Shown: positions 5,437-21,372, counted from the stretch's first letter. The stretch is 27,293 nt of DNA from Promethearchaeota archaeon (GCA_016839745.1 JAEOTS010000015.1:1-27293), one strand, 5' to 3'. Notes: generated by a model from the sequence alone, not told the origin. Program-made: numbers and translations.

Positions 5437-6360
5437 TTAAGCTAATTTCATTCTAATTTGCTTAGATCGGGACCGTAATGTGACCTCTGTTACCTTGGCC
5501 ACTTCTGAGACTTCTGCTTGTGTTTTTCGGCAGTTACTTGATTTGGCCGCCATATATATTACACTTGCCGCTAAGCCTTTAGGGTCTTTCCCTGTTCTTA
5601 ATAGTCCGTTTTTTGACGCGTCTGCGAGCATGTCGATCGCTTTCTTCTGAACTTCCATTGGTAATCCCAAATCGTTTCCGAATCGAAATACTAACTGTTC
5701 GGCTGTAATTGGTTTGTACCTTAGATTTAATTCAGGTAAAACTTCTTTTACAATCATTCCTAAGCTTCTATGAACAGTTCTTCGTGGAGTCATAGAAGCA
5801 TCGCAAACTTCCTCTAATAAACGTGGAAATTCGTGAACCCTGATTGCAGCGTATAATGAAGCAGCAATAAAACCATCAATTGATCTTCCCATGGTTAACT
5901 TCTTCCTTGCAACAACGCTATAAATTTTCCATGCTGTTTCTTTGATATACTCTGGAATGTTTAATTTCGACGTAAGCATTTTTAACTTTGGTTTTGCTTC
6001 CCAAAAGTTTCTTTCAATGCTGGAAATTAAGGAATTCTGAATTTTTGAAAGTCTGGAAAACAGAGTTTTTCCCTTTGCATTAATCAATCTTCCTTTTGAA
6101 TCGATCTTTGAATTTGGTAACATGGTTCTTGGCCCGAACTCTCTCCATCGTGGTTCGGTCCGTCTTCGTTTATTTACTTCTTCTACTGTGTATGCTCTCC
6201 TCTCATTTCCAACTAAGTTCCTACTCTGAATCATTCCGCAGTTTAAACAGACAACATCACCATCTTTTGACTCAACTGAAGGATCTTCGCAACACTGTCC
6301 ACTAGGACTATCCTCTTCTGAATCTCCCTTTGTTGATCGTAGGCGGTCTCGATATGACAT
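5437..6360 (-). CDS. tfb: Transcription initiation factor IIB (archaeal TFB)
   Basis: N-terminal Zn ribbon (CC...VVCLNCG), ERNF, and two cyclin repeats with GRSIDGFIAASLYAAIR, GKDPKGLAASVIY and TQAEVSEVAKVTEVTLRSR. Confidence 0.95.
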   Translation of the reverse strand: MSYRDRLRSTKGDSEEDSPSGQCCEDPSVESKDGDVVCLNCGMIQSRNLVGNERRAYTVEEVNKRRRTEPRWREFGPRTMLPNSKIDSKGRLINAKGKTLFSRLSKIQNSLISSIERNFWEAKPKLKMLTSKLNIPEYIKETAWKIYSVVARKKLTMGRSIDGFIAASLYAAIRVHEFPRLLEEVCDASMTPRRTVHRSLGMIVKEVLPELNLRYKPITAEQLVFRFGNDLGLPMEVQKKAIDMLADASKNGLLRTGKDPKGLAASVIYMAAKSSNCRKTQAEVSEVAKVTEVTLRSRSKQIRMKLA

Positions 6361-6757
6361 ATATTTTCACTTTATTCTTTGTTCGTTTTTGTTAAATAAT
6401 GATTATTCAATTAATACGCAAACTTTTTCGTTAAAATGTATGATCATTATACATTATAAGTTTTTCGAAAATATTACTACAAATAATCTTATTATTATTA
6501 TATATATTGTAAAATATGTAACTCCACTATATAAAAATGTTTTTATCTACAGACGTGATATGTCCCAGAACAAACTTCTAAGTGAGATTTGCGGGTATAT
6601 AATGGGAAAAAGTCAGTTTATTTTTTATAAGTTAATGTTTTCGGATTTTGCTGTTACGCGGTTATTGGAAATCTTTTATATGATATTATCACAAACTAGA
6701 TTATTGCATAATTTTATCGCCCAGTTGTATGGATTAATCTCCAAATTCTCTACAAAT

Positions 6758-7798
6758 TTATTCCTCAATTTTGTTAAAATTTAGTAATTTTCTTGTTATT
6801 TTATTAAAAACCATCTCTACATTGTAGCCTGTTAGAGCAGAAATTTCAAGATATTCAAGGTCTAAAGAATATGAGAGCCTTAACGCATCCCTCTCGCTTA
6901 TAATTCTTTTTTTAACCAAATCCTTCTTATTTCCAATAAGATAACCATTTAGAGCTATATTATTTTTCAAGTAATTTTTTATATCTTGGTGCCATTTTGG
7001 AACATTAGCAAAAGACATTGGATTCGTTAAATCAAAAATAAATAGTAGGATGTTCGCACCCTCATAAAATTTCTTTCTTATGAGTTCAAATTTGGTTTGA
7101 CCTCCCAAATCCCACAACACTAATTCTACAATGTTAGTATCAATATTAAAGATTTTTTGTGTGATATTTAGACCCATCGTTGGAATATATGCCCTAAGAA
7201 ACACGTTATCAGTAAATCTCAGGATTGTAGATGTTTTACCTACCCTCGGGTCTCCTAGGACTACGACTTTAAATTTCCTTTTTTCTACTTGATTATCTTC
7301 AATGATTAATCTTGAGGGTTCTTCTTTCTTTGATACGTACTGGCTTTTAGAAGACAAATATTCTGTTAAATTGCATAAAATGATATGCAATTTCACAATT
7401 TCTTCGTATATTAATTCGTCTATAGTACCATTTTTCTTGAGGGTGAGCATAGTGCTAACAGTTTTACTAAAATATGAATCGATATAACTCATATATCGGT
7501 AATATATCTGATCATTTTCTTCAGCAAATAAAAAGATTATCGCAGACTTAGAAATTCCTTCTTTTTTAGTAGGATCTTCTCTTTTAAAATATTTAATTAA
7601 TACTTTTATTTTTAGAGGTGAAATAGGAAAAATTAAGAGAACTTCCGGGATGAAAGTTGGATCACCAGATATAATCGAAATACACTCCTCAACAATATCT
7701 CTTCGGTATTTCTCTGATAGATTATAAGGATACCAAAAATTAATCTTTGGAGTATCCTTATCTATATCCAGATAAATGATTGCGTTTGTAGAATCCAT
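6758..7798 (-). CDS. Rab-like small GTPase with an N-terminal ~150-aa longin/uDENN-like domain
   Basis: G1 GDPRVGKT, G2 YIPTMG, G3 WDLGGQ, G4 NKKD, G5 SAL, plus Rab-like FYEGA. The N-terminal IIYLDIDKDTPKINFWYP resembles the beta-hairpin-Pro start of uDENN/NPRL2-type longins (inferred). Confidence 0.9.
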   Translation of the reverse strand: MDSTNAIIYLDIDKDTPKINFWYPYNLSEKYRRDIVEECISIISGDPTFIPEVLLIFPISPLKIKVLIKYFKREDPTKKEGISKSAIIFLFAEENDQIYYRYMSYIDSYFSKTVSTMLTLKKNGTIDELIYEEIVKLHIILCNLTEYLSSKSQYVSKKEEPSRLIIEDNQVEKRKFKVVVLGDPRVGKTSTILRFTDNVFLRAYIPTMGLNITQKIFNIDTNIVELVLWDLGGQTKFELIRKKFYEGANILLFIFDLTNPMSFANVPKWHQDIKNYLKNNIALNGYLIGNKKDLVKKRIISERDALRLSYSLDLEYLEISALTGYNVEMVFNKITRKLLNFNKIEE

Positions 7799-7855
7799 TT
7801 CAATCTAAATTAAATCGATAATTCTTATATTAAATTACTAATTCACTGATTTAAA

Positions 7856-9136
7856 TTATTTGTTTATTAATGGAAGAATTTGTGGTCCATTAGGTAAAAT
7901 AAGTATGGACGCGTCTTTTCCATGTTTTATTATAGATTGTTTTATTGCATTTTCTACAGTGTTAGCATATTTTAAACCGATATTTCCGATTTCCTCCTCT
8001 TTCATATTAGATACAAGATATACTTCAGACTTCATTAATATTCGGGCTAATACTTGAATTTCCCATTGATCAGGTATAACTATATCTTTCTTTAGGATTT
8101 TATTATAGATTTCTTCTGGAGCTTTTCCAGAAAAAATAAGCTCTTTAAACTTATCTTGTCCTACGCCAACTCCTTCTTTGCACTCATTTACTGAAATTAT
8201 AGTGCCTCCTCGCTTTACACCCATTTCTCCGATTGCCATACTTTTTACAGCTTGATAAAGGTTGAGATCTAAAGGGAAACCTCCATTTCCACAAACCACG
8301 ATATCGAACAATTCTTTAATTTCCTTGAAAATATGTTTGCTTTGATAATCAACTAATCTTTTATGAACCAATTCTAAATCACCAGCAGCTACTTGAATGA
8401 TTTCGTGTTTTTTATTAATGCATACATTAATAGTGAAATCTACACCAACTTTTCTTGCATGTCTAGATGAATGTTCAGGTAGTGGATTATTTTCATAGAT
8501 TCCAAATCGGGCATACGGAGAAGCTATATTTTCGGCGGAGTGATTTGCTAATATAGTTTCAGCACCTGCTAAACCAGGAACAATGGATTTATATCCCCCC
8601 GAAAAACCAAAGAAAAAGTGAGGTTCAACATATCCGGTTAAAATTTTTAGATCGCTTTCATAATAGTGTTTATTTATATCAATAGGATTCTCAAAATCGT
8701 TAGTTTGTAATGATACCAGAGATTTCTTATCGGTTGCAATGTGATTGATTATTTGAACATCACTGGTTAAAATTGAACCTAAAATTCTATTTAGTTCCTC
8801 TTTATGGGTTGGGCGGTGCAATCCCGTGGCAATTAAGATCCTGATATTTTTATATTGAATTCCATAATTTGTCAATTCTTTTAAAAGCCCTTCTAGAATA
8901 AGATGAGTTGGAACTGGTCGCGTTGCATCTGAAACTACAATACATACAGACTTGATCTTATTTTTATTTTTTATAATTGCCTTTAATGAGTTATTTCCCA
9001 CAGGATTTTTAATAGCATCCCTGATCGCTTTAATTGGATTTTCGATTGGAAATAGCTCCGTAGGTTGAATAATTTTCGTGTTCCAATTAGGATCAATCTC
9101 TAACTGAATTCCATTTTTTCCGTAGTCTAATTTCAT
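7856..9136 (-). CDS. larA: LarA-family nickel-pincer-dependent racemase/epimerase (DUF2088)
   Basis: SDATRP, IATGLHR, EPHFFFGFSGGYKSIVPG, PLDLNLYQAVK, DQWE. Substrate specificity is not determinable from the sequence. Confidence 0.9.
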   Translation of the reverse strand: MKLDYGKNGIQLEIDPNWNTKIIQPTELFPIENPIKAIRDAIKNPVGNNSLKAIIKNKNKIKSVCIVVSDATRPVPTHLILEGLLKELTNYGIQYKNIRILIATGLHRPTHKEELNRILGSILTSDVQIINHIATDKKSLVSLQTNDFENPIDINKHYYESDLKILTGYVEPHFFFGFSGGYKSIVPGLAGAETILANHSAENIASPYARFGIYENNPLPEHSSRHARKVGVDFTINVCINKKHEIIQVAAGDLELVHKRLVDYQSKHIFKEIKELFDIVVCGNGGFPLDLNLYQAVKSMAIGEMGVKRGGTIISVNECKEGVGVGQDKFKELIFSGKAPEEIYNKILKKDIVIPDQWEIQVLARILMKSEVYLVSNMKEEEIGNIGLKYANTVENAIKQSIIKHGKDASILILPNGPQILPLINK

Positions 9137-11270: not shown

Positions 11271-12740
11271 TTGATCTACGATGTTATTATTATAGGTGGT
11301 GGTGTTACTGGTTGTTGTATCGCTCGAACTTTATCAAAATTTGATCTCAATGTTGCTTTGTTAGAAAAAGAGGCTGATATTGCATCAGGTACTACTAAAG
11401 CTAATTCGGGCGTAGTACACGCTGGTTTTGCGTCACCAAGAGAATATGTTAAGCGTGATATGTGCATTAAAGGAAACAAGCTGTATACTCAAGCCGAAGA
11501 GGAACTAAATTTTTCATTTCAAAGAATTGGTTCTTTTGTGGTTGCTTTAGAAGATAATCAAATAAAGAGACTTGAAGAACAGAGAATACAAGGAACTCAG
11601 GATGGAGTTCCTGGCTTGGAACTAATTTTAGATAAGAAAAAAATAAAGCACATGGAACCTAATCTTACAGACGAAGTGGTTGGCGTCCTACACGCACCCA
11701 CAGCAGGAATAGTTAGTCCTTATGGAATGACTTATGCGCTCGCTGAGAATGCTGCTATGAATGGCGTAAAATTCTTCCGAAATCAGAGAGTGAGAAGAAT
11801 TAAACATCAAAACTACACCTTTACAATTAAAACTAAAGAAAAAGAATTTAAAGCCAATAATGTTATTAATGCTGCGGGAGTATACGGAGCGAAGATTTCA
11901 AAAATGGTTGGTTTGGACTATTTTAACATAATGCCAAGAAAGGGAGAATACATTCTTTTTGATAGAAATGCGATGCATCTTAACAAAATTTTATTTCCCA
12001 CACCAACTAAAGTATCTAAAGGCATTTTAGTTTGCCCAACCGTAAGTGGAAATACATTTGTTGGGCCAAACGCTCAAAATATTAGTGATAAAAAGGATAT
12101 AGCAACCACTGAAGCAGGATTAAAGGAAATTTTGGAAGGAGGAAAGAAATTAGTTCCTAATCTACCGTTAAGAGCATCTATTAGGAATTTTGCAGGTTTG
12201 AGGGCAGTACCGGACACATACGATTTCATAATTGACAATACTGATGTCTACGGGTTTATTAATGTAGTTGGTATTTTATCCCCTGGTTTAACGTCGTGTT
12301 ATGCAATTGCTGAGCGGGTTGTTGAGTTCTTAGAATTGTTGGGTGTAAATACAGAAGTTAAAGAAGACTATAATCCAATACGTCCAAAACCGGAAAGGTT
12401 CAAGGATTTTTCTAAAAAAGAGTTGGACATAAAAATAAAAGAAGATCCTGCTTGGGGAAGAATTATTTGTAGATGTGAGACTATTCCAGAAAGAGAAATT
12501 TTGAACGCAATTCATTCTCCCGTCGGAGCAAACACTATGGATGGAATAAAATTTAGATGTCGACCAGGTATGGGTAGATGCCAAGGTGGATTTTGCAGAC
12601 CGAGACTGATCGAAATCCTTTCAAGAGAATTGAATATATCATATGAGGAAGTAGTGAAAATGGGAGAAGATACTAATTTTCTTGTTTCTAAAACTAAGGA
12701 TGTTATCCTTAACAATTTAGGGGAAGGTATTGAAGAATGA
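11271..12740 (+). CDS. glpA: GlpA-like FAD-dependent oxidoreductase (probable glycerol-3-phosphate dehydrogenase) with a C-terminal BFD-like [2Fe-2S] domain
   Basis: GGGVTG FAD motif, TTKANSGVVHAG, PRKGEY, FAGLR, SPGLT, then CRCE...GMGRCQGGFC. TTG start with an upstream GAGGT. Confidence 0.85.
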   Translation: MIYDVIIIGGGVTGCCIARTLSKFDLNVALLEKEADIASGTTKANSGVVHAGFASPREYVKRDMCIKGNKLYTQAEEELNFSFQRIGSFVVALEDNQIKRLEEQRIQGTQDGVPGLELILDKKKIKHMEPNLTDEVVGVLHAPTAGIVSPYGMTYALAENAAMNGVKFFRNQRVRRIKHQNYTFTIKTKEKEFKANNVINAAGVYGAKISKMVGLDYFNIMPRKGEYILFDRNAMHLNKILFPTPTKVSKGILVCPTVSGNTFVGPNAQNISDKKDIATTEAGLKEILEGGKKLVPNLPLRASIRNFAGLRAVPDTYDFIIDNTDVYGFINVVGILSPGLTSCYAIAERVVEFLELLGVNTEVKEDYNPIRPKPERFKDFSKKELDIKIKEDPAWGRIICRCETIPEREILNAIHSPVGANTMDGIKFRCRPGMGRCQGGFCRPRLIEILSRELNISYEEVVKMGEDTNFLVSKTKDVILNNLGEGIEE

Positions 12741-14035
12741 AGAAATACAAAGCTGATGTCGTTGTAATTGGTGCTGGGGCTGGCGGGTTAGCCGCTGCTA
12801 TAGAAGTCAAAAAGGCGAACTTAGACGTACTCATTATTGAAAGGGACAGGGAATTAGGAGGCATAACTTTGCAATGTATTCATAATGGATTTGGGTTAAA
12901 AGAATTTGAAGAAGAATTAACCGGTCCAGAATATGCACAGAGGTTTATTAATCAAGTAATCGATTTAGAAATCCCTTATTTATTAGACTCCATGGTCATT
13001 GAAATTACTAAAGAAAAAAAAGTGTATGCTGTTAATAATAGCGAAGGATTAATCGAAGTGGAAGCAAAATCAATTATATTGGCTATGGGTTGCAGAGAAA
13101 AAACCAGAGGGGCAATAAATATACCCGGTTTCCGTCCTGCGGGCATTTATACTGCAGGACAAGCTCAAAGATTTGTCAATATTGAAGGGTATTTACCGGG
13201 AAATTCTTATGTAATATTAGGGAGCGGAGATATAGGAATGATAATGGCTCGAAGATTAACTTGGGAGGGCTGTAAGGTTAAAGCAGTTGTAGAGATACAA
13301 CCATATGTCAGTGGTTTACTCCGAAACCAAGTCCAGTGTTTAGAAGACTACGATATTCCTTTAATTACAAGCTATACTGTTACGAAAATTCATGGTAGAG
13401 AAAGAGTACAAGGAGTAACAATTTCAAAGGTGGATCGAACTTTTGATAGAATAATAGGATCAGACAAATTTATTGAATGTGACACCTTATTATTATCTGT
13501 TGGTCTAATTCCAGAAAATGAATTAACTTTACAAGCAGGAGCGGAATTATCTAACAATGGCGGTCCGATAGTCGATGAAAATTTAGAAACCACAATCGAA
13601 GGAATATTTGCTTGTGGAAATGTATTACAAGTTCATGATTTAGTGGACATGGTAACTAACGAAGCTAAAAGAACCGGAAAAAATACAGTGGAATATATCA
13701 ATTCGAGATATGGCAAAGAATTAAAGAAGAAAGAAATAATTCAATGTCTTCCAGGGGAGAATGTAAATTATGTAAAACCTGACATTATCAATAAGCAAGA
13801 CATTTCAAAAGAGATTTTCTTTACTTTTAGAGTTAGGTACCCGGATAGAAGGGTTCTTGTACAATTTAAAGACGAAAATAATAATCTAATCTATAATAGA
13901 AAGAAAATATATGTTATCCCTAGTGAGATGGTTGAATTAAATCTAAACTTAGAAGAAGCAAATATAAATCCGGATTGCAAAACGATAACAATAGAAGTAA
14001 TACCTCGACCGGAGGTATTAATTGAGGAGGATTAA
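12737..14035 (+). CDS. FAD/NAD(P)-dependent oxidoreductase (pyridine nucleotide-disulfide family), partner of the GlpA-like subunit
   Basis: GAGAGG, QCIHNGFG, ELTGPEYA, AMGCRE, GSGDIG, GNVLQVHDLVD. It overlaps the upstream gene by 4 bp (ATGA). Confidence 0.88.
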   Translation: MKKYKADVVVIGAGAGGLAAAIEVKKANLDVLIIERDRELGGITLQCIHNGFGLKEFEEELTGPEYAQRFINQVIDLEIPYLLDSMVIEITKEKKVYAVNNSEGLIEVEAKSIILAMGCREKTRGAINIPGFRPAGIYTAGQAQRFVNIEGYLPGNSYVILGSGDIGMIMARRLTWEGCKVKAVVEIQPYVSGLLRNQVQCLEDYDIPLITSYTVTKIHGRERVQGVTISKVDRTFDRIIGSDKFIECDTLLLSVGLIPENELTLQAGAELSNNGGPIVDENLETTIEGIFACGNVLQVHDLVDMVTNEAKRTGKNTVEYINSRYGKELKKKEIIQCLPGENVNYVKPDIINKQDISKEIFFTFRVRYPDRRVLVQFKDENNNLIYNRKKIYVIPSEMVELNLNLEEANINPDCKTITIEVIPRPEVLIEED

Positions 14036-14040
14036 GTTTT

Positions 14041-14050
14041 AGAGGAGGTT
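14041..14050 (+). promoter_or_regulatory. Shine-Dalgarno-like site for the DUF1667 gene
   Basis: AGAGGAGGTT ends 6 nt upstream of the ATG at 14057. Confidence 0.6.
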
Positions 14051-14056
14051 ATAAAA

Positions 14057-14437
14057 ATGAGTGAAAGTAGTGCAAGCGTTGTAAAAGTTATAAGGTGTAT
14101 TGTATGTCCTACTGGCTGTCAGATTCAAGCCATTCAAAAAGGCTCAGATATTGTATTTGAAGGATATACCTGCAAAAGAGGATTAGAATACGCACAACAA
14201 GAATATTTTGAACCCAAGAGAATCCTTACAACTACAATCAGAGTTAAGAATGGATTTTTACCATTGATCCCAGTGAGAACCGATAAACCAATTCTTAAAG
14301 AAAAATTAAGTGACGCATTAAACGAGATTGCCAAAATCCAAGTAAATGCACCAATAAAGATGGGGGAAATATTAATAGAAAGCATTCTCGGATTAGAATC
14401 AAATGTAATTGCTAGCCGAGATTTAACCGAAAAATAA
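14057..14437 (+). CDS. DUF1667 Cys-rich small subunit (third gene of the GlpA-type operon)
   Basis: CIVCPTGC, GYTCKRGLEYA, PKRILTTT, PVRTDKPI, APIKMG, NVIASR. Confidence 0.88.
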   Translation: MSESSASVVKVIRCIVCPTGCQIQAIQKGSDIVFEGYTCKRGLEYAQQEYFEPKRILTTTIRVKNGFLPLIPVRTDKPILKEKLSDALNEIAKIQVNAPIKMGEILIESILGLESNVIASRDLTEK

Positions 14438-14518
14438 ATATTTTAATCTTCTTTTATAATTTAAAGTAAGTATTGTTCACGTTATTTTTTTATACTTATT
14501 ATGAGTTAGGGGAAAATT

Positions 14519-14644
14519 ATGGAAAGTTATGATGTTGTTATAGTCGGAGGATTTATCGCAGGCTTAGTTGCGGGAAGATATCTCGCAGAAGCAGGTAAGA
14601 AACCATTTAGTGGTATTCAATTTGGATCTTACCTGCCTAGTTAG
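14519..14644 (+). pseudogene. Truncated remnant of an FAD-dependent oxidoreductase (geranylgeranyl-reductase-like)
   Basis: This 41-codon ORF is absent from the supplied track: MESYDVVIVGGFIAGLVAGRYLAEAGKKPFSGIQFGSYLPS*. It starts as a Rossmann FAD-binding fold, has a purine-rich AGGGG upstream and then stops. Confidence 0.7.
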
Positions 14645-14697
14645 AATAAATAAATATGATAAAATTGTAAATATTACTTATAAAACCTTTTGAGAAA

Positions 14698-15153
14698 ATG
14701 GTGGAATTGGATCAAATCTATAAGGTGCATGAAAATTTATACATAGGCGCTTATTGGCCAAGGTTAAACTTTGAGGAATTTAAAAAGATTGGCATAAAAG
14801 CTATCGTTAATTTAATGGAAGATAATTTTTATGATCCAACTCACTTAGGATTTAACTACCTTTTCAAGGGTTTTCCAGACGATTGGTACCCTCCACATGA
14901 TTATCTAAAAGAAATTTTTTCCTTCATAGATCATCATATAAAGAAGGGAAAGGTTTTAGTTCATTGTGCTATGGGTATTTCTCGAAGCGGTGGTATTATT
15001 GTAGCATGGCTTTTAAAAGAAAATCCAAATTGGAGCTGGAACGATGCCTTGGAATACGTTAACAAATCGAGGTTAGTATTTCCTGCTGTTGAGATAAAAG
15101 AATCAATTCTCGATTATTTTGAATCCATAGAGGGAATTAGAAGAGAATTTTAA
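14698..15153 (+). CDS. Dual-specificity protein phosphatase (DSP/PTP superfamily)
   Basis: CX5R active site VLVHCAMGISRS, with LYIG, GIKAIVNL and an upstream acidic loop FPDD. Confidence 0.92.
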   Translation: MVELDQIYKVHENLYIGAYWPRLNFEEFKKIGIKAIVNLMEDNFYDPTHLGFNYLFKGFPDDWYPPHDYLKEIFSFIDHHIKKGKVLVHCAMGISRSGGIIVAWLLKENPNWSWNDALEYVNKSRLVFPAVEIKESILDYFESIEGIRREF

Positions 15154-15281
15154 TATGTTATTAATTATTTTTATATCGAACTCGTAACATATCGCCACTA
15201 TTTCTATTTTCCTTTAGCCTAGATTTATATTAACCTTCTAAGATTATTTAACTAATACTTATTTTAAAAAATGAAAGAATA

Positions 15282-15566
15282 ATGTCGACACAACATAAAG
15301 ATGCTAAATCCCACAGAATCCAAATATATTTCGATTGCATTTGCGGTATTATTTGCTCAATATCAGCTCTTATTGGTATTTTATTTTTTACACTACAAGA
15401 GGGAATCTATAACCCTACCTACTTCATAATAGGCCTTTCTTTTTGGATTGGTTATTTTGCATTATCTTTATTTGTAATAGGATTAGGCATAAATACTTAT
15501 TACCGAGAAAAAAATTTTAACCCTGATGCAATTCCGAAAAAAAAGTTAAAAGCATCCATAGTGTAG
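15282..15566 (+). CDS. Small hypothetical membrane protein (2 TM)
   Basis: Two hydrophobic segments and a basic C-terminal tail. Confidence 0.7.
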   Translation: MSTQHKDAKSHRIQIYFDCICGIICSISALIGILFFTLQEGIYNPTYFIIGLSFWIGYFALSLFVIGLGINTYYREKNFNPDAIPKKKLKASIV

Positions 15567-15703
15567 TAATTTCTAATTCTTTACTTTTAACACTCTCTTA
15601 AAGCAATCTGAATTTCTATTTTTTACATAAATTTTTAATATCTCGCTTAGATCATTTAATAAAAATTATATATCAATATTGAAACAAACGAGGAGATATT
15701 AAA

Positions 15704-16039
15704 TTGCCTGAATTTGAGGAAGATGTTTTAAGTCTGCTAAGAAGAATTGACAAAAAACTAGATAAACTTTTAGGAATTAGCAGTTTAAAAGCAGAATCTG
15801 CGAAATCTGCAACTCCAACGGGAGATAGATATGTTAAACCTTCTATAGTTGTTGAAAAACAGGAAGAAGAAGAAAGAGCAAAAGAAAAACCACCTGTTGA
15901 AGGAAGAAGAATCTGCCCAGCTTGTGGTGGAACCTCGTTTAACACTGAGGAAGATAAATCTCAAGTATTATTTCAACAATCTGGGATAAAAATACACGCG
16001 AAAAAATATATCTGCAGAAATTGCGGAACGGAAGCCTAA
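15704..16039 (+). CDS. Small Zn-ribbon protein with an N-terminal amphipathic helix
   Basis: TTG start preceded by GAGGAG. Contains CPACGG...CRNCG. The C-terminal module matches the tail of the gelsolin at 18858..19877. Confidence 0.85.
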   Translation: MPEFEEDVLSLLRRIDKKLDKLLGISSLKAESAKSATPTGDRYVKPSIVVEKQEEEERAKEKPPVEGRRICPACGGTSFNTEEDKSQVLFQQSGIKIHAKKYICRNCGTEA

Positions 16040-16224
16040 AAATTATAACAATTTTCTTTTCTTTTTTAAATTATTACATAATAATGAAAGGAATATTTAT
16101 TTTTATCTTATATAACTCAATTATCTGTTTACTCTCAACACATTAACTCTGTTCTTATTTATTGCTAAGTTGAATTAATAAAATTTAATTAAAATTATGC
16201 TTTTCCTATATCAGTGATGAATTA

Positions 16225-16863
16225 ATGGCAAATGGAGAAATTATTATCCAAATAATGCTTATTACAATCGGAATGGTAGGCTTAAGCGAGCTTCTAAATA
16301 GAATCTTGGGTTTAAACATGGGAGCTGCGAGAGAATTAAGAGAAAAATCACAAAATCTACAAGAACGAATGCGAACAGCAAGACTCACGGGAAATCCTCA
16401 AGAAATGATAGAACTCCAGCAAGAATCAATGGAATTAACTAAACTAATGATGAAAAAGCAAATGATCCCTTCTTGCGTAAGATGTTTTATATTTTTAGGA
16501 ATATTTGCTGTAATTGGATTTTTATACGCGGACTACACAGAAGGATTACTCCCCTTTCCAATTTTATTTTTTGGATCTGGATGGTTCGCTATCTACTTCT
16601 TATTTTCAATCACATTTAGTCTAATCATATATGGCTTCAAAAGATTATACAGGAAGTTAACTGGTAAAGAAGTTAAACGCAGTAGAGCGTCTGGAGGGAT
16701 GCTAGGAGGATTATCTCCTCAAACAGGAGATCAAGAACAACATCTCCAGTTAACTAGGTCAATACCTAATGAATCGATACAAGGGAGAGTCGAGGAAGAC
16801 TTACAAGAAAAAGAAGATGAAGAACCTAAAGTTGGTTCTTGGAAGGATCGTATAAAAAAATGA
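16225..16863 (+). CDS. DUF106 / EMC3-TMCO1-Get1 (Oxa1 superfamily) membrane insertase-like protein
   Basis: TM1, then a Met-rich coiled-coil (ELREKSQNLQERMR...ELQQESMELTKLMMKKQMIP), TM2, LPFP, and TM3 with GWFAIYFLFS. Confidence 0.8.
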   Translation: MANGEIIIQIMLITIGMVGLSELLNRILGLNMGAARELREKSQNLQERMRTARLTGNPQEMIELQQESMELTKLMMKKQMIPSCVRCFIFLGIFAVIGFLYADYTEGLLPFPILFFGSGWFAIYFLFSITFSLIIYGFKRLYRKLTGKEVKRSRASGGMLGGLSPQTGDQEQHLQLTRSIPNESIQGRVEEDLQEKEDEEPKVGSWKDRIKK

Positions 16864-16905
16864 CATAAATCGAGGATTACTCTTAACTGAATTAACTAAT
16901 TTTAA

Positions 16906-17397
16906 ATGATTAGACCTATGGAAGAACAAAATAACATTAAAAAACAAATGTTTTTTTATTTCGTCTTTGCTGCTTGTATGATTGTTTTAAACTATATTAT
17001 ACAAAAAATTAATCAGCTTGTTATAGCTCCTTTTGTATGTAGTACCCTTGGAAGTATTGAATTTTTTCAGATTATGTATTGTTCTACAAGCCCTGTTAAT
17101 ATGCCTGAATTGATAGGTTCAATAGCGGCTGTTGGAATTACTTATATCATTAAGTTCTTTTTAGATAAATATATTGTCTTCAAGAAATCGAGTTTAAAGA
17201 TTAAAGAGACCTCACAGGAGTTTTTGAAGTACTTTGGATTTGCAATTTTAACTACAATTGAAAATATTGGCATCCAATTTCTCTTAACTAATTTTTTTAA
17301 TGCCCCTTTAGAAGTAAGTTTTATAATCGCTCTCTCTATTGGATACCTAACTAAATTCTTTTTAGACAAAAAGTATGTTTTTACGAAAGAATACTAA
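16906..17397 (+). CDS. GtrA-family small membrane protein (putative lipid-linked sugar flippase)
   Basis: Four TMs with an internal duplication, YIIKFFLDKYIVF and YLTKFFLDKKYVF, plus EFLKYFGFA. Confidence 0.72.
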   Translation: MIRPMEEQNNIKKQMFFYFVFAACMIVLNYIIQKINQLVIAPFVCSTLGSIEFFQIMYCSTSPVNMPELIGSIAAVGITYIIKFFLDKYIVFKKSSLKIKETSQEFLKYFGFAILTTIENIGIQFLLTNFFNAPLEVSFIIALSIGYLTKFFLDKKYVFTKEY

Positions 17398-17515
17398 TAA
17401 GAGTGAAAACTAATCCTTTTTTTTTAAAAGATGGAGTTCGTTTAATAAGCAATGTCTAAAACGCGTACAACATAGTTTAGATTAAAATAAATACGATTAT
17501 TGATTTTATAATATT

Positions 17516-18793
17516 ATGTCAGAGGATCAGAGGGATAAAAAAGAAGAAGACACGTCTATGGTAGACGCGTTAAGTTCACTTGGTTGGATAGAAGAGAAAG
17601 ACAATGAAGAGGAGATCCCTGTCACTGAAGAAGACAAAATAAGGGAACAATTAAATTTCTTTATTGAACAAAATAAACTACTAACAGATGAAATAAACAC
17701 GCTTAAGGACGAATACGATAGTCTTAAAGCCATCTCTGAAACTTTTCACCAAGAGAAAGAAAAATCTATTCAATTAACTAAAGAAAATAATGCTACAATA
17801 GAAGATTTGCTACAGAAAATTGTTGAAAAAGATAATTCTATAAACGATCTTGAATCAAAAATTGAATTTCTGAACGAAACAAATGTAGTAGATTTAGAAG
17901 TAAGTAAATCAATTGAGATTAAAGAAAAAGAAATTGAATCGCTACAATCTCAATTAAAAGATAAGAACAAACATATTGAAGAGTTCGAGTTCTCTGCTAA
18001 CGAAAAAAATCAGATCATTCAAGACCAAAAAATTAATATTGACAATTTAAATAAAGTTATTGCCGAACAAACTCAAAAAATAGAGAGTATCAGCCTAGAT
18101 TTAGAAGAAATAAAGTCTGAACAAATAAATAATACTGGGCTTGTTGGGAGATTACAAGAAAAAGACGAAAAAATCAAAGAATTAATGGAACAAATTCAAT
18201 ATTTAGAGAACGACACTGTCCAAAAATCAAAATTCGAAAAAGTTCAGGTGCTACTTGAAAAGAAAGACGAGATTATCACGGAAAAAGAGAAAGAGATTTT
18301 TAAACTTGAAAGCTCCCAACAATCGTCTGTTCAATCAATGAAAGAATTACAACAGAAGGTAGAAACTTTCAGCTTAGTTAAAAAGGATTTGGCAAAAAAA
18401 GAAGAACGGATTAAGAATTTAGTAATAGAGATTGAAAAATTAACTCAAAATAATATAACAAATAAAGAATTTATCAATCAAATTCAAGCAAGATTGGAAG
18501 AATCCCAGGAGAAATCTGGCAACATATCCGGAAAACTCGAGCTAGAGATAATAAATTTAAGAAATATCGTTGATGGCCAAGTCACCGAAATAAAAGAGTT
18601 GAGGGTAAATGGAGAAAAATTGAAAAATAAAATATTTGAATCTGAGCAAATTGAAGACAGATTATTAACCGAAATGCAAAAAGTAAAGGATGAAAAACTA
18701 AAAGCAGAATCTCAACTCGAAGATAAGGAAAAAGAACTAGTTGAGTTAAAGAAAAAAATTAAAATCCTTCGTAGAGATAGTAAAAAGTCTTAA
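17516..18793 (+). CDS. Long soluble coiled-coil protein
   Basis: E/K/Q/I/L-rich heptads over about 385 aa with no Pro after residue ~35. No ATPase motif or TM segment. Confidence 0.85.
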   Translation: MSEDQRDKKEEDTSMVDALSSLGWIEEKDNEEEIPVTEEDKIREQLNFFIEQNKLLTDEINTLKDEYDSLKAISETFHQEKEKSIQLTKENNATIEDLLQKIVEKDNSINDLESKIEFLNETNVVDLEVSKSIEIKEKEIESLQSQLKDKNKHIEEFEFSANEKNQIIQDQKINIDNLNKVIAEQTQKIESISLDLEEIKSEQINNTGLVGRLQEKDEKIKELMEQIQYLENDTVQKSKFEKVQVLLEKKDEIITEKEKEIFKLESSQQSSVQSMKELQQKVETFSLVKKDLAKKEERIKNLVIEIEKLTQNNITNKEFINQIQARLEESQEKSGNISGKLELEIINLRNIVDGQVTEIKELRVNGEKLKNKIFESEQIEDRLLTEMQKVKDEKLKAESQLEDKEKELVELKKKIKILRRDSKKS

Positions 18794-18857
18794 TATTCTA
18801 AACCTTTTGATTAAAATTTAAAAAAAGATAAAAAAATTGTTTATTTTTTATTAGGAG

Positions 18858-19877
18858 TTATTTTTCCCTCCAATCCGTTGAGCATTCTCCACAGTGATAC
18901 ATTTTGCCGTAAACTCGTGGATAGTCGAGGATTATATTGCTTTTATCAACGCTTTCATGAATCATCGTTTTATCTTCAGTTCCACATTTAGGGCATCTTC
19001 TACGGCCTTCAGGTTTTTCAACAGTCAAGATAGAATGATCTACAAATCCTGGAATTCCAGGTCCCGCACTTGAGGCACTCACATCCTTAATTTGGGCAAT
19101 ATCTGCTTTTATTTCTTCAGGAGTAATTTCTTTTACTTCCGATTTAAATTCTGGTTGAATTTCTGCTGCTGCTTTATCTGCTTCTGTTTCAGGTTCTAAT
19201 ACTGATTCAGCTCTTAATTGAACCGCATCAGATTCTTTATAATCTACTCCTCTCTCTAACGCTGCGAGGAATTCAGAATCGTCCCCTTCTTCAAAAATCC
19301 GTTCATTTTGGGAACCAGCTCTCTCAGCATCAATATTTCTTGCCCATTGGCCTGCTCTTACTTTTTCTTTGACATTGCACGTTCTTCCTTGCCAAATATA
19401 AACTTTATTTCCTAAGTCAGCAACGTAGCAATCTTCTGAATCTAATGAATCTTTCGCAAAAGGAACTTGAACCATTTTCATAGAGTTAATACCTTCAAAT
19501 TCTTCTGCTGAAACACGATAAAGAATATTTTTCCATTCTTCAAATCCCGCCCAATCCCCTGTAGATACATCTTTGAGAAGAGTTTTTGCGATGTTCTTCT
19601 CAACAACTTTCATAGCCCCCATTGGACTAATTAATTTTAAAAATGCATTAGGTTCTTGATTTTCATCAACAGTTATTATCTTTGCTGCCCCACCTCTTTG
19701 TTGGTCAAGAGTTCGTGCTTGTGCGGCTCCTGCAGTTTTTTCATCGACTGAAGCCTTGCTACCTATCCATACGTAAATTGTTTTATCGTCGTCAACGATA
19801 TAAACATCCCCCATAGAAAAAATTGGTTTTGAAATTTCTTTTAAATTCCCTTGATCGACTATATAAATTGAAGTCAA
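18858..19877 (-). CDS. Two-domain gelsolin-like actin regulator with an acidic linker and a C-terminal Zn ribbon
   Basis: Two gelsolin repeats: GDVYIVDDDKTIYVWIGSKASVDEK...ENQEPNAFLKL and SLDSEDCYVADLGNKVYIWQGRTCNVKEK...EEGDDSEFLAAL. The tail has CPKCG...CGEC. TTG start. Confidence 0.9.
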   Translation of the reverse strand: MTSIYIVDQGNLKEISKPIFSMGDVYIVDDDKTIYVWIGSKASVDEKTAGAAQARTLDQQRGGAAKIITVDENQEPNAFLKLISPMGAMKVVEKNIAKTLLKDVSTGDWAGFEEWKNILYRVSAEEFEGINSMKMVQVPFAKDSLDSEDCYVADLGNKVYIWQGRTCNVKEKVRAGQWARNIDAERAGSQNERIFEEGDDSEFLAALERGVDYKESDAVQLRAESVLEPETEADKAAAEIQPEFKSEVKEITPEEIKADIAQIKDVSASSAGPGIPGFVDHSILTVEKPEGRRRCPKCGTEDKTMIHESVDKSNIILDYPRVYGKMYHCGECSTDWREK

Positions 19878-19992
19878 TTTTTCAACAACTTTTTAACAAA
19901 TTTTTATATTAGATATAAACTCAATGTTTTTAATTGCATGCAAAAATAAATAAAAGGTATAAGGATAATATATAGAAAATTTCTAAACAAAC

Positions 19993-21372
19993 TCAATAAT
20001 CATTTAACGCGAGATTAAATCGTTTAACGAATTCAGGAATTTTTGTTAAATCTATTGAACAGTAGGCGATTCTGATTCCGTTTATGTTATTGTTGTGTTT
20101 TTCGATAGGGATCACTCCTACTTTGTATTTTCTTAATAGGTGATCTGCAAACTGATTCGCGCTTATTTTATTAGGGTTTAGATTGACAAAGACGAAGAAA
20201 CCTCCCGCGTTTGGATCTACTGAAATATTCGAATTATCAATCTTTCTAAGTTCTTGGTTAATTTTTTCATACCTCTTTTTAAGGAGATTCGTAACTTTAT
20301 CTCTTTTTTGAATCAATCCCTCCATACCAACATCCTTAAAAAGTTTAATAACAAGCGCTTGATAGAAATGATTAGAATTTGAAATGGTAGTTCTCACTAA
20401 TCCCGATAATTTATTAGTTAATTCTGTTTTTAGAGCTATTAGTTCCTCTTCACTATTAACCCATTGTGGCTTTAATCCAACCGTAATGAACCCTATACGC
20501 CCTCCATACAGTAACATTTCTTTAGTTATTCCATCTAGCTTAATTGGAATTACATCTTCCTCTATCTCATGTAGAGCGTAAAAAATAGAGCGTTTTATTG
20601 CATTATCAGAAAAAATATAAGGTTCATAAGCGTCATCTACTAATACGAAAATTGGTTTAGAAAGATCTTTTTGACTTTGTTTTAACATATAGACAAGTTC
20701 TTCCATTTCGTCCTTGCTAGGAACATAACCCGTGGGATTATTAGGGAACCCTAAAATTAGCGTTATTTTTTCTTGATTCTTAGCAATTTCGTAGATTGCG
20801 TCTTTCAATCCTTGAATATTGAATTTTTCTTCAATGAAAAAATCAAAAGATTTGATTTTAGCCCCGAGTAATTTCTCGATGATATTATCATAATTCCCCC
20901 ATCTCTTATTTGGAGATATTATGAACTCCTCCGGATTTAAGAGCAAAGAACAACATAAAAATATCCCATTTGTTAATCCTGAGGTTACTAGAGGAGTGGT
21001 GGTAAAATTTTCAAGTCTATTTAACTTATCTAGCTCAAAATCCTTATTATAAAGGGATTTCTTAATTAACCATTTTTTCCAATGAGTCTTTAATTCTTCA
21101 AGACCAGAAACTTGAGAATATGGAACAATTTCCTTTATGCTAAGTTTTGTAAAATTTTTGATATCTTCTAAATAAAGAGGAAGCCATTCAGAACTCCCTC
21201 CTTCAATAAAATCTTTCTCGTATCCAAAAGCAGATCCAAGAGTACCGCTAATTTCAGCTTCCTTTTTTGCTCTACCAGACCAATGAAAAATGCCTTGAGG
21301 TAAATAAATTCGTTTTCCTTGCTCTGACAAGGCGTTATAGAGTGGAGTTTTTTTAGTAACTTCAAATTCCAT
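19993..21372 (-). CDS. Class I/II PLP-dependent aminotransferase
   Basis: TSGLTNG, WGNY, FPNNPTGY, DDAY, PLP-lysine motif DGITKE...GGRIG, GGFF, IRIAY. Confidence 0.9.
   Translation of the reverse strand: MEFEVTKKTPLYNALSEQGKRIYLPQGIFHWSGRAKKEAEISGTLGSAFGYEKDFIEGGSSEWLPLYLEDIKNFTKLSIKEIVPYSQVSGLEELKTHWKKWLIKKSLYNKDFELDKLNRLENFTTTPLVTSGLTNGIFLCCSLLLNPEEFIISPNKRWGNYDNIIEKLLGAKIKSFDFFIEEKFNIQGLKDAIYEIAKNQEKITLILGFPNNPTGYVPSKDEMEELVYMLKQSQKDLSKPIFVLVDDAYEPYIFSDNAIKRSIFYALHEIEEDVIPIKLDGITKEMLLYGGRIGFITVGLKPQWVNSEEELIALKTELTNKLSGLVRTTISNSNHFYQALVIKLFKDVGMEGLIQKRDKVTNLLKKRYEKINQELRKIDNSNISVDPNAGGFFVFVNLNPNKISANQFADHLLRKYKVGVIPIEKHNNNINGIRIAYCSIDLTKIPEFVKRFNLALNDY

Follow-up and report, generated by a model that had tools for sequence, protein, structure and literature searches.

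The sequence analyzed here, referred to as the window, is a 27,293-nucleotide contig (C74; GCA_016839745.1 JAEOTS010000015.1:1-27293) of an Asgard metagenome-assembled genome (MAG) from a Promethearchaeota archaeon; the MAG comprises 3.5 Mb in 192 contigs with approximately 31% GC, a completeness of 89% and a contamination of 5.8%. Two of its genes, one for a small protein of 111 amino acids and one for a two-domain gelsolin of 339 amino acids, encode proteins that end in the same zinc-ribbon module. The two genes and their parts are as follows.

15704..16039, plus strand: gene for the 111-aa helix-linker-zinc-ribbon protein, TTG start, stop codon included
15707..15775, plus strand: small protein, conserved N-terminal amphipathic helix, residues 2-24 (orthologue alignment, AlphaFold2)
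15776..15835, plus strand: small protein, variable Ser/Thr/Ala/Gly-rich linker, residues 25-44 (alignment, AlphaFold2)
15836..15883, plus strand: small protein, conserved K-P-S and acidic EKQEEEE(K/R) stretch, residues 45-60 (alignment)
15884..16036, plus strand: small protein, zinc-ribbon module, residues 61-111, EKPPVEGRR then CPAC ... CRNC
18858..19877, minus strand: gene for the two-domain gelsolin with linker and zinc tail, 339 aa (Pfam Gelsolin, match to 7WHG)
19188..19877, minus strand: gelsolin, two repeats with an LLKDV motif between them, residues 1-230 (Pfam, 7WHG alignment)
19020..19187, minus strand: gelsolin, acidic linker, residues 231-286, matching the "Link" of Loki2DGel
18861..19019, minus strand: gelsolin, zinc-ribbon module, residues 287-339, EKPEGRRR then CPKC ... 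DKS ... RVYGKMYHCGEC

The 111-aa protein is already on record exactly as called here, and its TTG start aligns with ATG in the orthologues. The gelsolin is matched by Pfam PF00626 in two stretches (E 3e-26). Over both genes, a metatranscriptome run (X14) yielded only 25-52-nt pieces with mismatches, which give no reliable cover. When the small protein was compared with the gelsolin by BLASTP, the alignment (34% identity over 89 columns, E 5e-9) was confined to the tails and part of the preceding linker. The preliminary description of this locus, made from the DNA sequence alone, had placed one C4 ribbon at the end of both proteins, joined by acidic linkers to unrelated N-terminal parts, and open reading frame (ORF) calls, BLASTP and the sequences themselves bear out each of these points, with the coordinates exact. 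The consensus it had given (EKP, EGRR, CPxCG, DKS, KxYxCxxC) was reproduced in the two-sequence alignment. The four cysteines form two CxxC pairs placed for one zinc (small protein, CPAC...CRNC; gelsolin, CPKC...CGEC), and the loop aromatic is a tyrosine in the gelsolin (RVYGKMY) and a histidine in the small protein (IKIHAKKY).

The module had been regarded as unnamed in the preliminary description, which is incorrect. The window gelsolin matches PDB 7WHG chain G, the Lokiarchaeota gelsolin 2DGel, over residues 4-339 with the tail included (E 1.2e-160), and its LLKDV between the repeats aligns with LLVDV of 7WHG chain G, a WH2-like inter-repeat motif. In Loki2DGel (KKK44901.1), a 69-aa linker was described as joining two gelsolin domains to a potential zinc-binding domain (Akil et al. 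2022, Commun Biol 5:890, PMC9433394). The same study reported that the zinc domain is always C-terminal, is spread over unrelated Loki proteins, MKD1-2DGel among the other carriers, contains an extended loop with a conserved tyrosine, and is probably a binding module; that proteins made of the zinc domain alone exist, e.g., TFG08877.1; and that the domain is without consistent homologues outside Loki (PMC9433394). The window gelsolin has the architecture of Loki2DGel (two repeats, acidic linker, C4 ribbon) without a difference, and the window modules share with its zinc domain the C-terminal position, the unrelated carriers, the free-standing forms and, in the gelsolin, the conserved loop tyrosine. 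Judged by their sequences, both window tails are copies of this published domain of Lokiarchaeal two-domain gelsolins. The module and the docking hypothesis have thus already been known since 2022, and since the tag was published then together with its suggested binding to "a cellular feature or complex", no new kind of thing is present here. The 111-aa helix-linker-ribbon type was not singled out by Akil et al., and the histidine at the loop aromatic position is a feature of the window species.

To define the family, a hidden Markov model (HMM) was built from the two tails, as the preliminary description had proposed, and compared with this genome. It recovered 11 clear copies (E 2e-36 to 3e-7), followed by matches at E of 0.05 or more; because of this gap, the module is a specific family rather than four chance cysteines. 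The tail of the small protein matches the family HMM with E 6e-34. No Pfam family reached its cut-off for any copy of the module or for the small protein. The carriers in the genome are a gelsolin and a small protein on the window and a second such pair on contig C23; free ribbons on C161 (62 aa; open frame 64 aa) and C98 (open frame up to 77 aa); three coiled-coil proteins (137, 327 and 417 aa); a fragment, 164 aa or longer, at the end of a contig; and a 582-aa protein with a second, internal CxxC ribbon. All 11 copies are C-terminal in their carriers. The internal ribbon (CxxC...CxxC) of the 582-aa open frame lies at C116:5511-5642 (L008), and the N-terminus of this protein resembles, by eye, a roadblock/longin domain and a degenerate GTPase, where Pfam gives no match. 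Proteins of approximately 550 aa with two ribbon matches, which resemble this carrier, are found among the best database matches (P0005, P0024, P0025, P0050).

The profile of the 11 sequences was then searched against 1.84 billion protein cluster representatives, giving 536 matches at E≤1e-3, 295 of them at E≤1e-10. Among the best 150 representatives, the module is at the extreme C-terminus in 143; 16 are of 90 aa or less, and 10 contain more than one ribbon motif. The module thus behaves as the mobile, nearly always C-terminal unit on unrelated carriers that had been proposed. It consists of approximately 50 residues with four cysteines, invariant across the 150 relatives, preceded by a conserved (I/V)-x-x-EKP-EGRR segment, and contains D, K, Y, K and K residues that are invariant or nearly so. 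Pfam analysis of the 150 representatives detected mostly generic coiled-coil families and one Ras-family match, with most proteins lacking any domain; a crude composition index for coiled coils in the partner regions was uninformative.

In a survey of 400 genomes of the phylum, the window's order was found to have 4-16 copies in all genomes, the other orders of the class 1-3, and many other families exactly one (E 1e-9 to 1e-18), while copies are missing from some families (0 of 22 and 0 of 19 genomes). The single copies are free proteins (open frames of 50-68 aa) that keep CPKCG, (E/D)K, aromatic-x-K-K and CxxCGxEW, and are present in Baldrarchaeota, Heimdallarchaeum aukensis, Hodarchaeota, Freyarchaeia and Atabeyarchaeia. 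Free proteins with little besides a ribbon (48-90 aa), here called minis, thus occur both in this genome and across Asgard classes. By sequence comparison, the free form is not Loki-specific, which corrects the 2022 statement on the lack of consistent homologues outside Loki, and the distribution suggests an ancestral free form, with the fusions as an expansion within the Lokiarchaea. The gene surroundings of the free minis are not conserved between Asgard classes. In Baldrarchaeota (L016:801-1376) and Freyarchaeia (L017:1936-2457) a gene for a helical protein of approximately 175-190 aa, Pro/Gly-rich in the middle and basic at the C-terminus, lies downstream of the free ribbon gene in the same orientation; these helical proteins resemble each other weakly (E 3e-7), and such a downstream partner was not seen in the other Asgard classes examined.

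Orthologues of the N-terminal 62 residues of the small protein were found in 50 of 70 sampled genomes of the window organism's family (f1). Alignment of the window protein with 17 orthologues from this family gives the helix consensus (S/T)EFEEKV(L/I)xLLExINxKLDKLL, in which L12, K18, L19 and D20 are invariant. The linker varies in length and sequence, and is followed by invariant K45, P46, S47 and E57, the acidic EKQEEEEK, EKPPVEGRR and finally the ribbon. At the loop aromatic position, the window species and its two nearest relatives have His and the other 15 have Tyr or Phe, Tyr being the residue in most orthologues. Conservation of helix, KPS and ribbon next to a variable linker is consistent with a real gene that is under selection. 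AlphaFold2 modeled residues 2-24 as a helix (predicted local distance difference test score, pLDDT, 85-90) and residues 79-104 as the ribbon (pLDDT approximately 85), with disorder at approximately 25-45 (pLDDT below 50 at 29-38) and a low-confidence helix at 46-60. A WH2 motif consists of a short amphipathic helix, a fixed short spacer and then LKK(T/V). The suggestion that the N-terminal helix is WH2-like is not supported, as the family consensus LLExINxKLDKLL lacks LKK(T/V) and does not match the WH2 spacing, its L-D-K-L standing two residues early. The helix-linker-ribbon family is a defined small adaptor candidate for testing.

AlphaFold2 applied to the 11-sequence alignment predicted a three-stranded ribbon with a long hairpin (pLDDT 80.7), in which the CxxC pairs flank the ribbon and the hairpin displays the conserved D-K-(S/T) and aromatic-x-K-K residues. 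Structural neighbours (Foldseek against the PDB, VIA-align) are the ribbons of RPA12, Rpb9, TFIIS, Rpp21 and NrdR, at scores that any zinc ribbon reaches (Foldseek E 0.2-1, TMq approximately 0.6, Z no higher than 4.2), and in the ESM Atlas only the mini-protein's own Promethearchaeota cluster scored above 0.9. The TFIIS/Rpb9/RPA12 ribbon (PF01096) and the N-terminal ribbon of NrdR share with the module a three-stranded C4 ribbon with a long β-hairpin. The window modules differ from the TFIIS-type ribbon in remaining below its Pfam cut-off with generic structural scores, in bearing aromatic-x-K-K in place of the acidic D-E catalytic hairpin tip, and in protein context, being of a type attached to gelsolin and coiled coils.

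The relation of the module to actin was assessed with a published Lokiactin co-immunoprecipitation (Co-IP) from Ca. Lokiarchaeum ossiferum B-35 (bioRxiv 10.1101/2025.11.30.690169, supplementary table 2; Nature version PMC13716822, the 2026 crawling-motility paper). The Co-IP table holds 1,500 rows sorted by enrichment, and we mapped ribbon carriers to it through their UYP accessions, with a tag offset taken from the identifier table of the paper, and through their molecular weights. L. ossiferum has eight ribbon carriers, and those detected are listed here with log2 enrichment and adjusted P value.

2DGel1, GNAMCCOK_04136, 36.6 kDa: log2 3.97, adjusted P 0.015
57-aa mini UYP47583, GNAMCCOK_03900, 6.54 kDa: log2 2.53, adjusted P 0.0039
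330-aa coiled-coil-zinc protein UYP44320, GNAMCCOK_00612, 36.98 kDa: log2 1.91, adjusted P 0.012
62-aa mini UYP47813, GNAMCCOK_04132, 7.37 kDa: log2 1.74, adjusted P 0.029
534-aa carrier UYP47237, GNAMCCOK_03553, 59.9 kDa: log2 0.57, not significant

Four of the five detected carriers are enriched with Lokiactin, two of them bare ribbons, and all four stand within approximately the first 82 of the 1,500 rows (the top 5% or so); as a rough estimate only, a chance of 5.5% per protein would give four of five in a fraction of approximately 4e-5 of cases. The 62-aa mini is abundant, with a proteome average of 21.08 compared with 21.69 for actin. Because the minis are little more than a ribbon, the module itself appears sufficient for direct or indirect association with Lokiactin-containing material. 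The words "zinc" and "ribbon" are never used in the main text of the Co-IP paper (10.1101/2025.11.30.690169), and it is worth passing on that a public Lokiactin Co-IP already holds bare ribbons among its enriched proteins. The table is headed by GNAMCCOK_00333 (37.5 kDa, log2 9.2), which ranks above actin. A very abundant protein, GNAMCCOK_04980 (44.64 kDa, log2 2.10, adjusted P 0.0012), is close in mass to an unmapped 404-aa coiled-coil-ribbon protein encoded at 5.84 Mb (expected 44.66 kDa); it was considered as an unmapped carrier and not counted, its tag being 20-70 genes away from the position estimate.

What is established for the module is its homology, its place at the C-terminus, its fold class, its spread and, in a relative, that its carriers co-purify with Lokiactin; that the ribbon itself makes the contact, and the nature of that contact, are inferred. 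On balance, the ribbon is probably a docking tag linked to the actin cytoskeleton. It would act autonomously as a protein-docking tag: from a flexible acidic linker it would bring whatever is fused to it (gelsolin, coiled-coil rods, short helices) to one partner, shared by the carriers, in or on the Lokiactin cytoskeleton. The 111-aa protein would be a small adaptor whose ribbon occupies the same docking site as the gelsolin tail, and whose N-terminal helix may bind something else or self-associate. This docking-tag interpretation is the hypothesis of Akil et al. themselves, now with some indirect proteomic support in a relative. The link to the actin cytoskeleton made in the preliminary description holds in part, with the Co-IP enrichment in its favor and, on the other side, partner domains that show no cytoskeletal enrichment in Pfam other than generic coiled coils. 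The villin headpiece, which is helical, follows the gelsolin repeats C-terminally and binds F-actin directly, is comparable by analogy only: it too is a small autonomous C-terminal domain after a linker and a possible second attachment point, but its fold is unrelated to the zinc ribbon and, unlike it, the Loki zinc domain did not co-sediment with rabbit F-actin.

Several observations weigh against the docking tag. In the Co-IP, the 534-aa carrier was detected without significant enrichment, carrier UYP46080 (341 aa) is not among the table rows listed, and the open frames of two further carriers (379 and 415 aa) are unmapped to accessions. Since the samples were cross-linked with formaldehyde, the association of carriers with Lokiactin may be indirect, and small, abundant proteins can be carried along. 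L. ossiferum belongs to a different family from the window organism, and no helix-linker-ribbon orthologue was found in the compared region near its gelsolin. Apart from the single Ras-family match, the partner domains that Pfam recognizes in the best 150 representatives are generic coiled coils only, the nearest folds are nucleic-acid-associated ribbons, and zinc binding by the module is predicted. In the assays of Akil et al., the Loki2DGel zinc domain did not co-sediment with rabbit F-actin and a GFP-Loki-Tail fusion was diffuse in human cells (PMC9433394). Direct binding is therefore unsupported for heterologous actin, and the published rabbit-actin assay speaks against direct actin binding.

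It is unlikely that the ribbons instead bind each other, which would cross-link the carriers, make caps or competitors of the minis and the 111-aa protein, and leave the Co-IP signal to arise only through the gelsolin's own tail. Such mutual binding would be in keeping with the many carriers per genome in the order (4-16), the tandem ribbons (more than one in 10 of 150), the co-purification of free minis with actin together with 2DGel1, and the presence of a ribbon-bearing small gene near the gelsolin in two families, f1 and f3 (0.2-4.4 kb in the latter). However, since most other Asgard classes have exactly one copy, a free mini, bridging of several different carriers cannot be the ancestral function. 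Moreover, gelsolins can be without the module in genomes that encode ribbons elsewhere: a genome of family f4 (G279) has a 208-aa gelsolin lacking the tail, and one of family f7 (G128) has no ribbon match at its 370-aa gelsolin.

The docking tag was also weighed against a module with no specific partner, a stable zinc knuckle that caps disordered or coiled-coil C-termini and has spread by duplication, for which the Co-IP enrichment would be carry-over. The fused proteins are indeed mostly low-complexity or coiled-coil, and other small, abundant proteins are also enriched in the Co-IP. We nonetheless consider this quite improbable, because residues on the non-ligand surface (D-K, the aromatic, K-K and the C-terminal E-W) are conserved across Asgard classes, the single-copy free form is kept in many of them, and four of the five detected carriers lie in the top 5% or so of the Co-IP rows. 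A basic membrane or lipid anchor, placing carriers at the cell membrane or protrusions without a protein partner, is very improbable: the conserved basic residues (EGRR ahead of the first Cys and K-K ahead of the third) clustered beside an exposed aromatic, the clustering of a free mini with a seven-helix membrane protein in the window organism's family, and the BAR and ARF proteins that the paper reports in the same Co-IP (10.1101/2025.11.30.690169) would be compatible with it, but the module has no hydrophobic or amphipathic insertion element and no match to a known lipid-binding family in Pfam, and GFP-Loki-Tail was diffuse in human cells (PMC9433394). Least credible, and highly improbable, is a regulatory ribbon associated with nucleic acid or RNA polymerase, of the TFIIS/Rpb9/NrdR kind and unrelated to the cytoskeleton, since the best structural neighbours (RPA12, Rpb9, TFIIS, Rpp21 and NrdR; TMq approximately 0.6, Z 3-4.2), the weak Pfam matches to TFIIB/TFIIS/Rrn7 ribbons and the basic residues (GRR, KK) are offset by scores that are all under family cut-offs and typical for any zinc ribbon, by a hairpin tip of aromatic-x-K-K rather than the acidic D-E loop of TFIIS, and by carriers that are gelsolin and coiled-coil proteins enriched with Lokiactin.

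We also raise, more tentatively and as a possibility that is doubtful at present, that the bare ribbon is a pan-Asgard protein of the Lokiactin cytoskeleton, that the single-copy mini of 50-70 aa is its ancestral form, and that the Lokiarchaeales made of it a portable tag on gelsolin, rods and adaptors. If true, the portable ribbon tag would be an archaeal invention of modular cytoskeletal targeting. How the few Asgard actin regulators are placed is a question for the origin of the eukaryotic cytoskeleton, and a tag common to gelsolin, coiled-coil proteins and abundant minis is a plausible answer.

The genes around the two ribbon genes of the window are as follows.

14698-15153, plus strand: 151-aa dual-specificity phosphatase (Pfam DSPc, E 4.5e-18)
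16225-16863, plus strand: EMC3/TMCO1-like membrane protein (Pfam PF01956, E 6e-8)
16906-17397, plus strand: GtrA-like protein (PF04138, E 2e-11)
17516..18793, plus strand: 425-aa coiled-coil protein without a ribbon, weak coiled-coil Pfam matches only, given for context

The gelsolin has one orthologue per genome in 68 of 70 genomes of the family. In 33 of the 50 genomes with the small gene, the two genes are on one contig, always convergent and 3.3-23 kb apart. A collinear block is recognizable in seven genomes of six genera, with the dual-specificity phosphatase, the small protein, the EMC3/TMCO1-like, the GtrA-like and the coiled-coil genes on one strand and the gelsolin, then an aminotransferase-like gene, on the other; insertions of differing size account for the variable distance between small gene and gelsolin. 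The neighbourhood that the preliminary description had pointed to is accordingly real as a collinear block inherited across the family, but it is inherited synteny and not an operon, and as functional evidence it was set aside as weak, given the inheritance, the insertions and the convergent orientation. A ribbon gene beside the gelsolin recurs in family f3, where three closed genomes have a convergent free mini at 0.2 kb (G135), 2.4 kb (G143) and 4.4 kb (L. ossiferum).

The gene for the 425-aa protein is tail-to-tail with that of the gelsolin, 65 nt apart. In each of the seven genomes compared, it is the first gene with homology next to the gelsolin, two of them having an insertion in between; the protein, with 35-53% identity, evolves fast. 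Two near-identical metatranscriptome contigs cover 17518-18012, possibly through DNA carry-over. The EMC3/TMCO1-like and GtrA-like genes lie between the small gene and the gelsolin, and their order is kept across the family. The phosphatase gene is upstream of the small gene in every locus that reaches that far, and in the window one small membrane-protein gene (15282-15566) separates it from the small ribbon gene downstream.

Contig C23 (1-10900, L022) repeats positions 11271-21372 of the window as at least 11 collinear genes with 72-91% amino-acid identity (gelsolin 88%, small protein 80%). Since every other sampled genome of the family has a single gelsolin orthologue, C23 is probably a related second population binned into the MAG, whose contamination is 5.8%, rather than a duplication. 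The free 62-aa ribbon gene (C161, 6417-6605) is in a same-strand cluster (5679-8066, L021). Upstream of it is a gene for a 198-aa protein (P0153) with no Pfam family and a putative, degenerate small-GTPase pattern seen by eye; downstream are genes for P0154, a seven-helix membrane protein of 240 aa, and for an HhH protein. At least 26 genomes of seven genera of the family encode a homologue of P0153 directly upstream of a free ribbon and in the same orientation. The MAG contains two Lokiactin genes (C80:8968-10110 and C190:3313-4440) that are 82% identical, and the second is also found, at 84%, in three other genomes of the genus; it is therefore an actin paralogue at the level of the genus rather than contamination. 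The MAG has a further three, more distant genes of the actin family.

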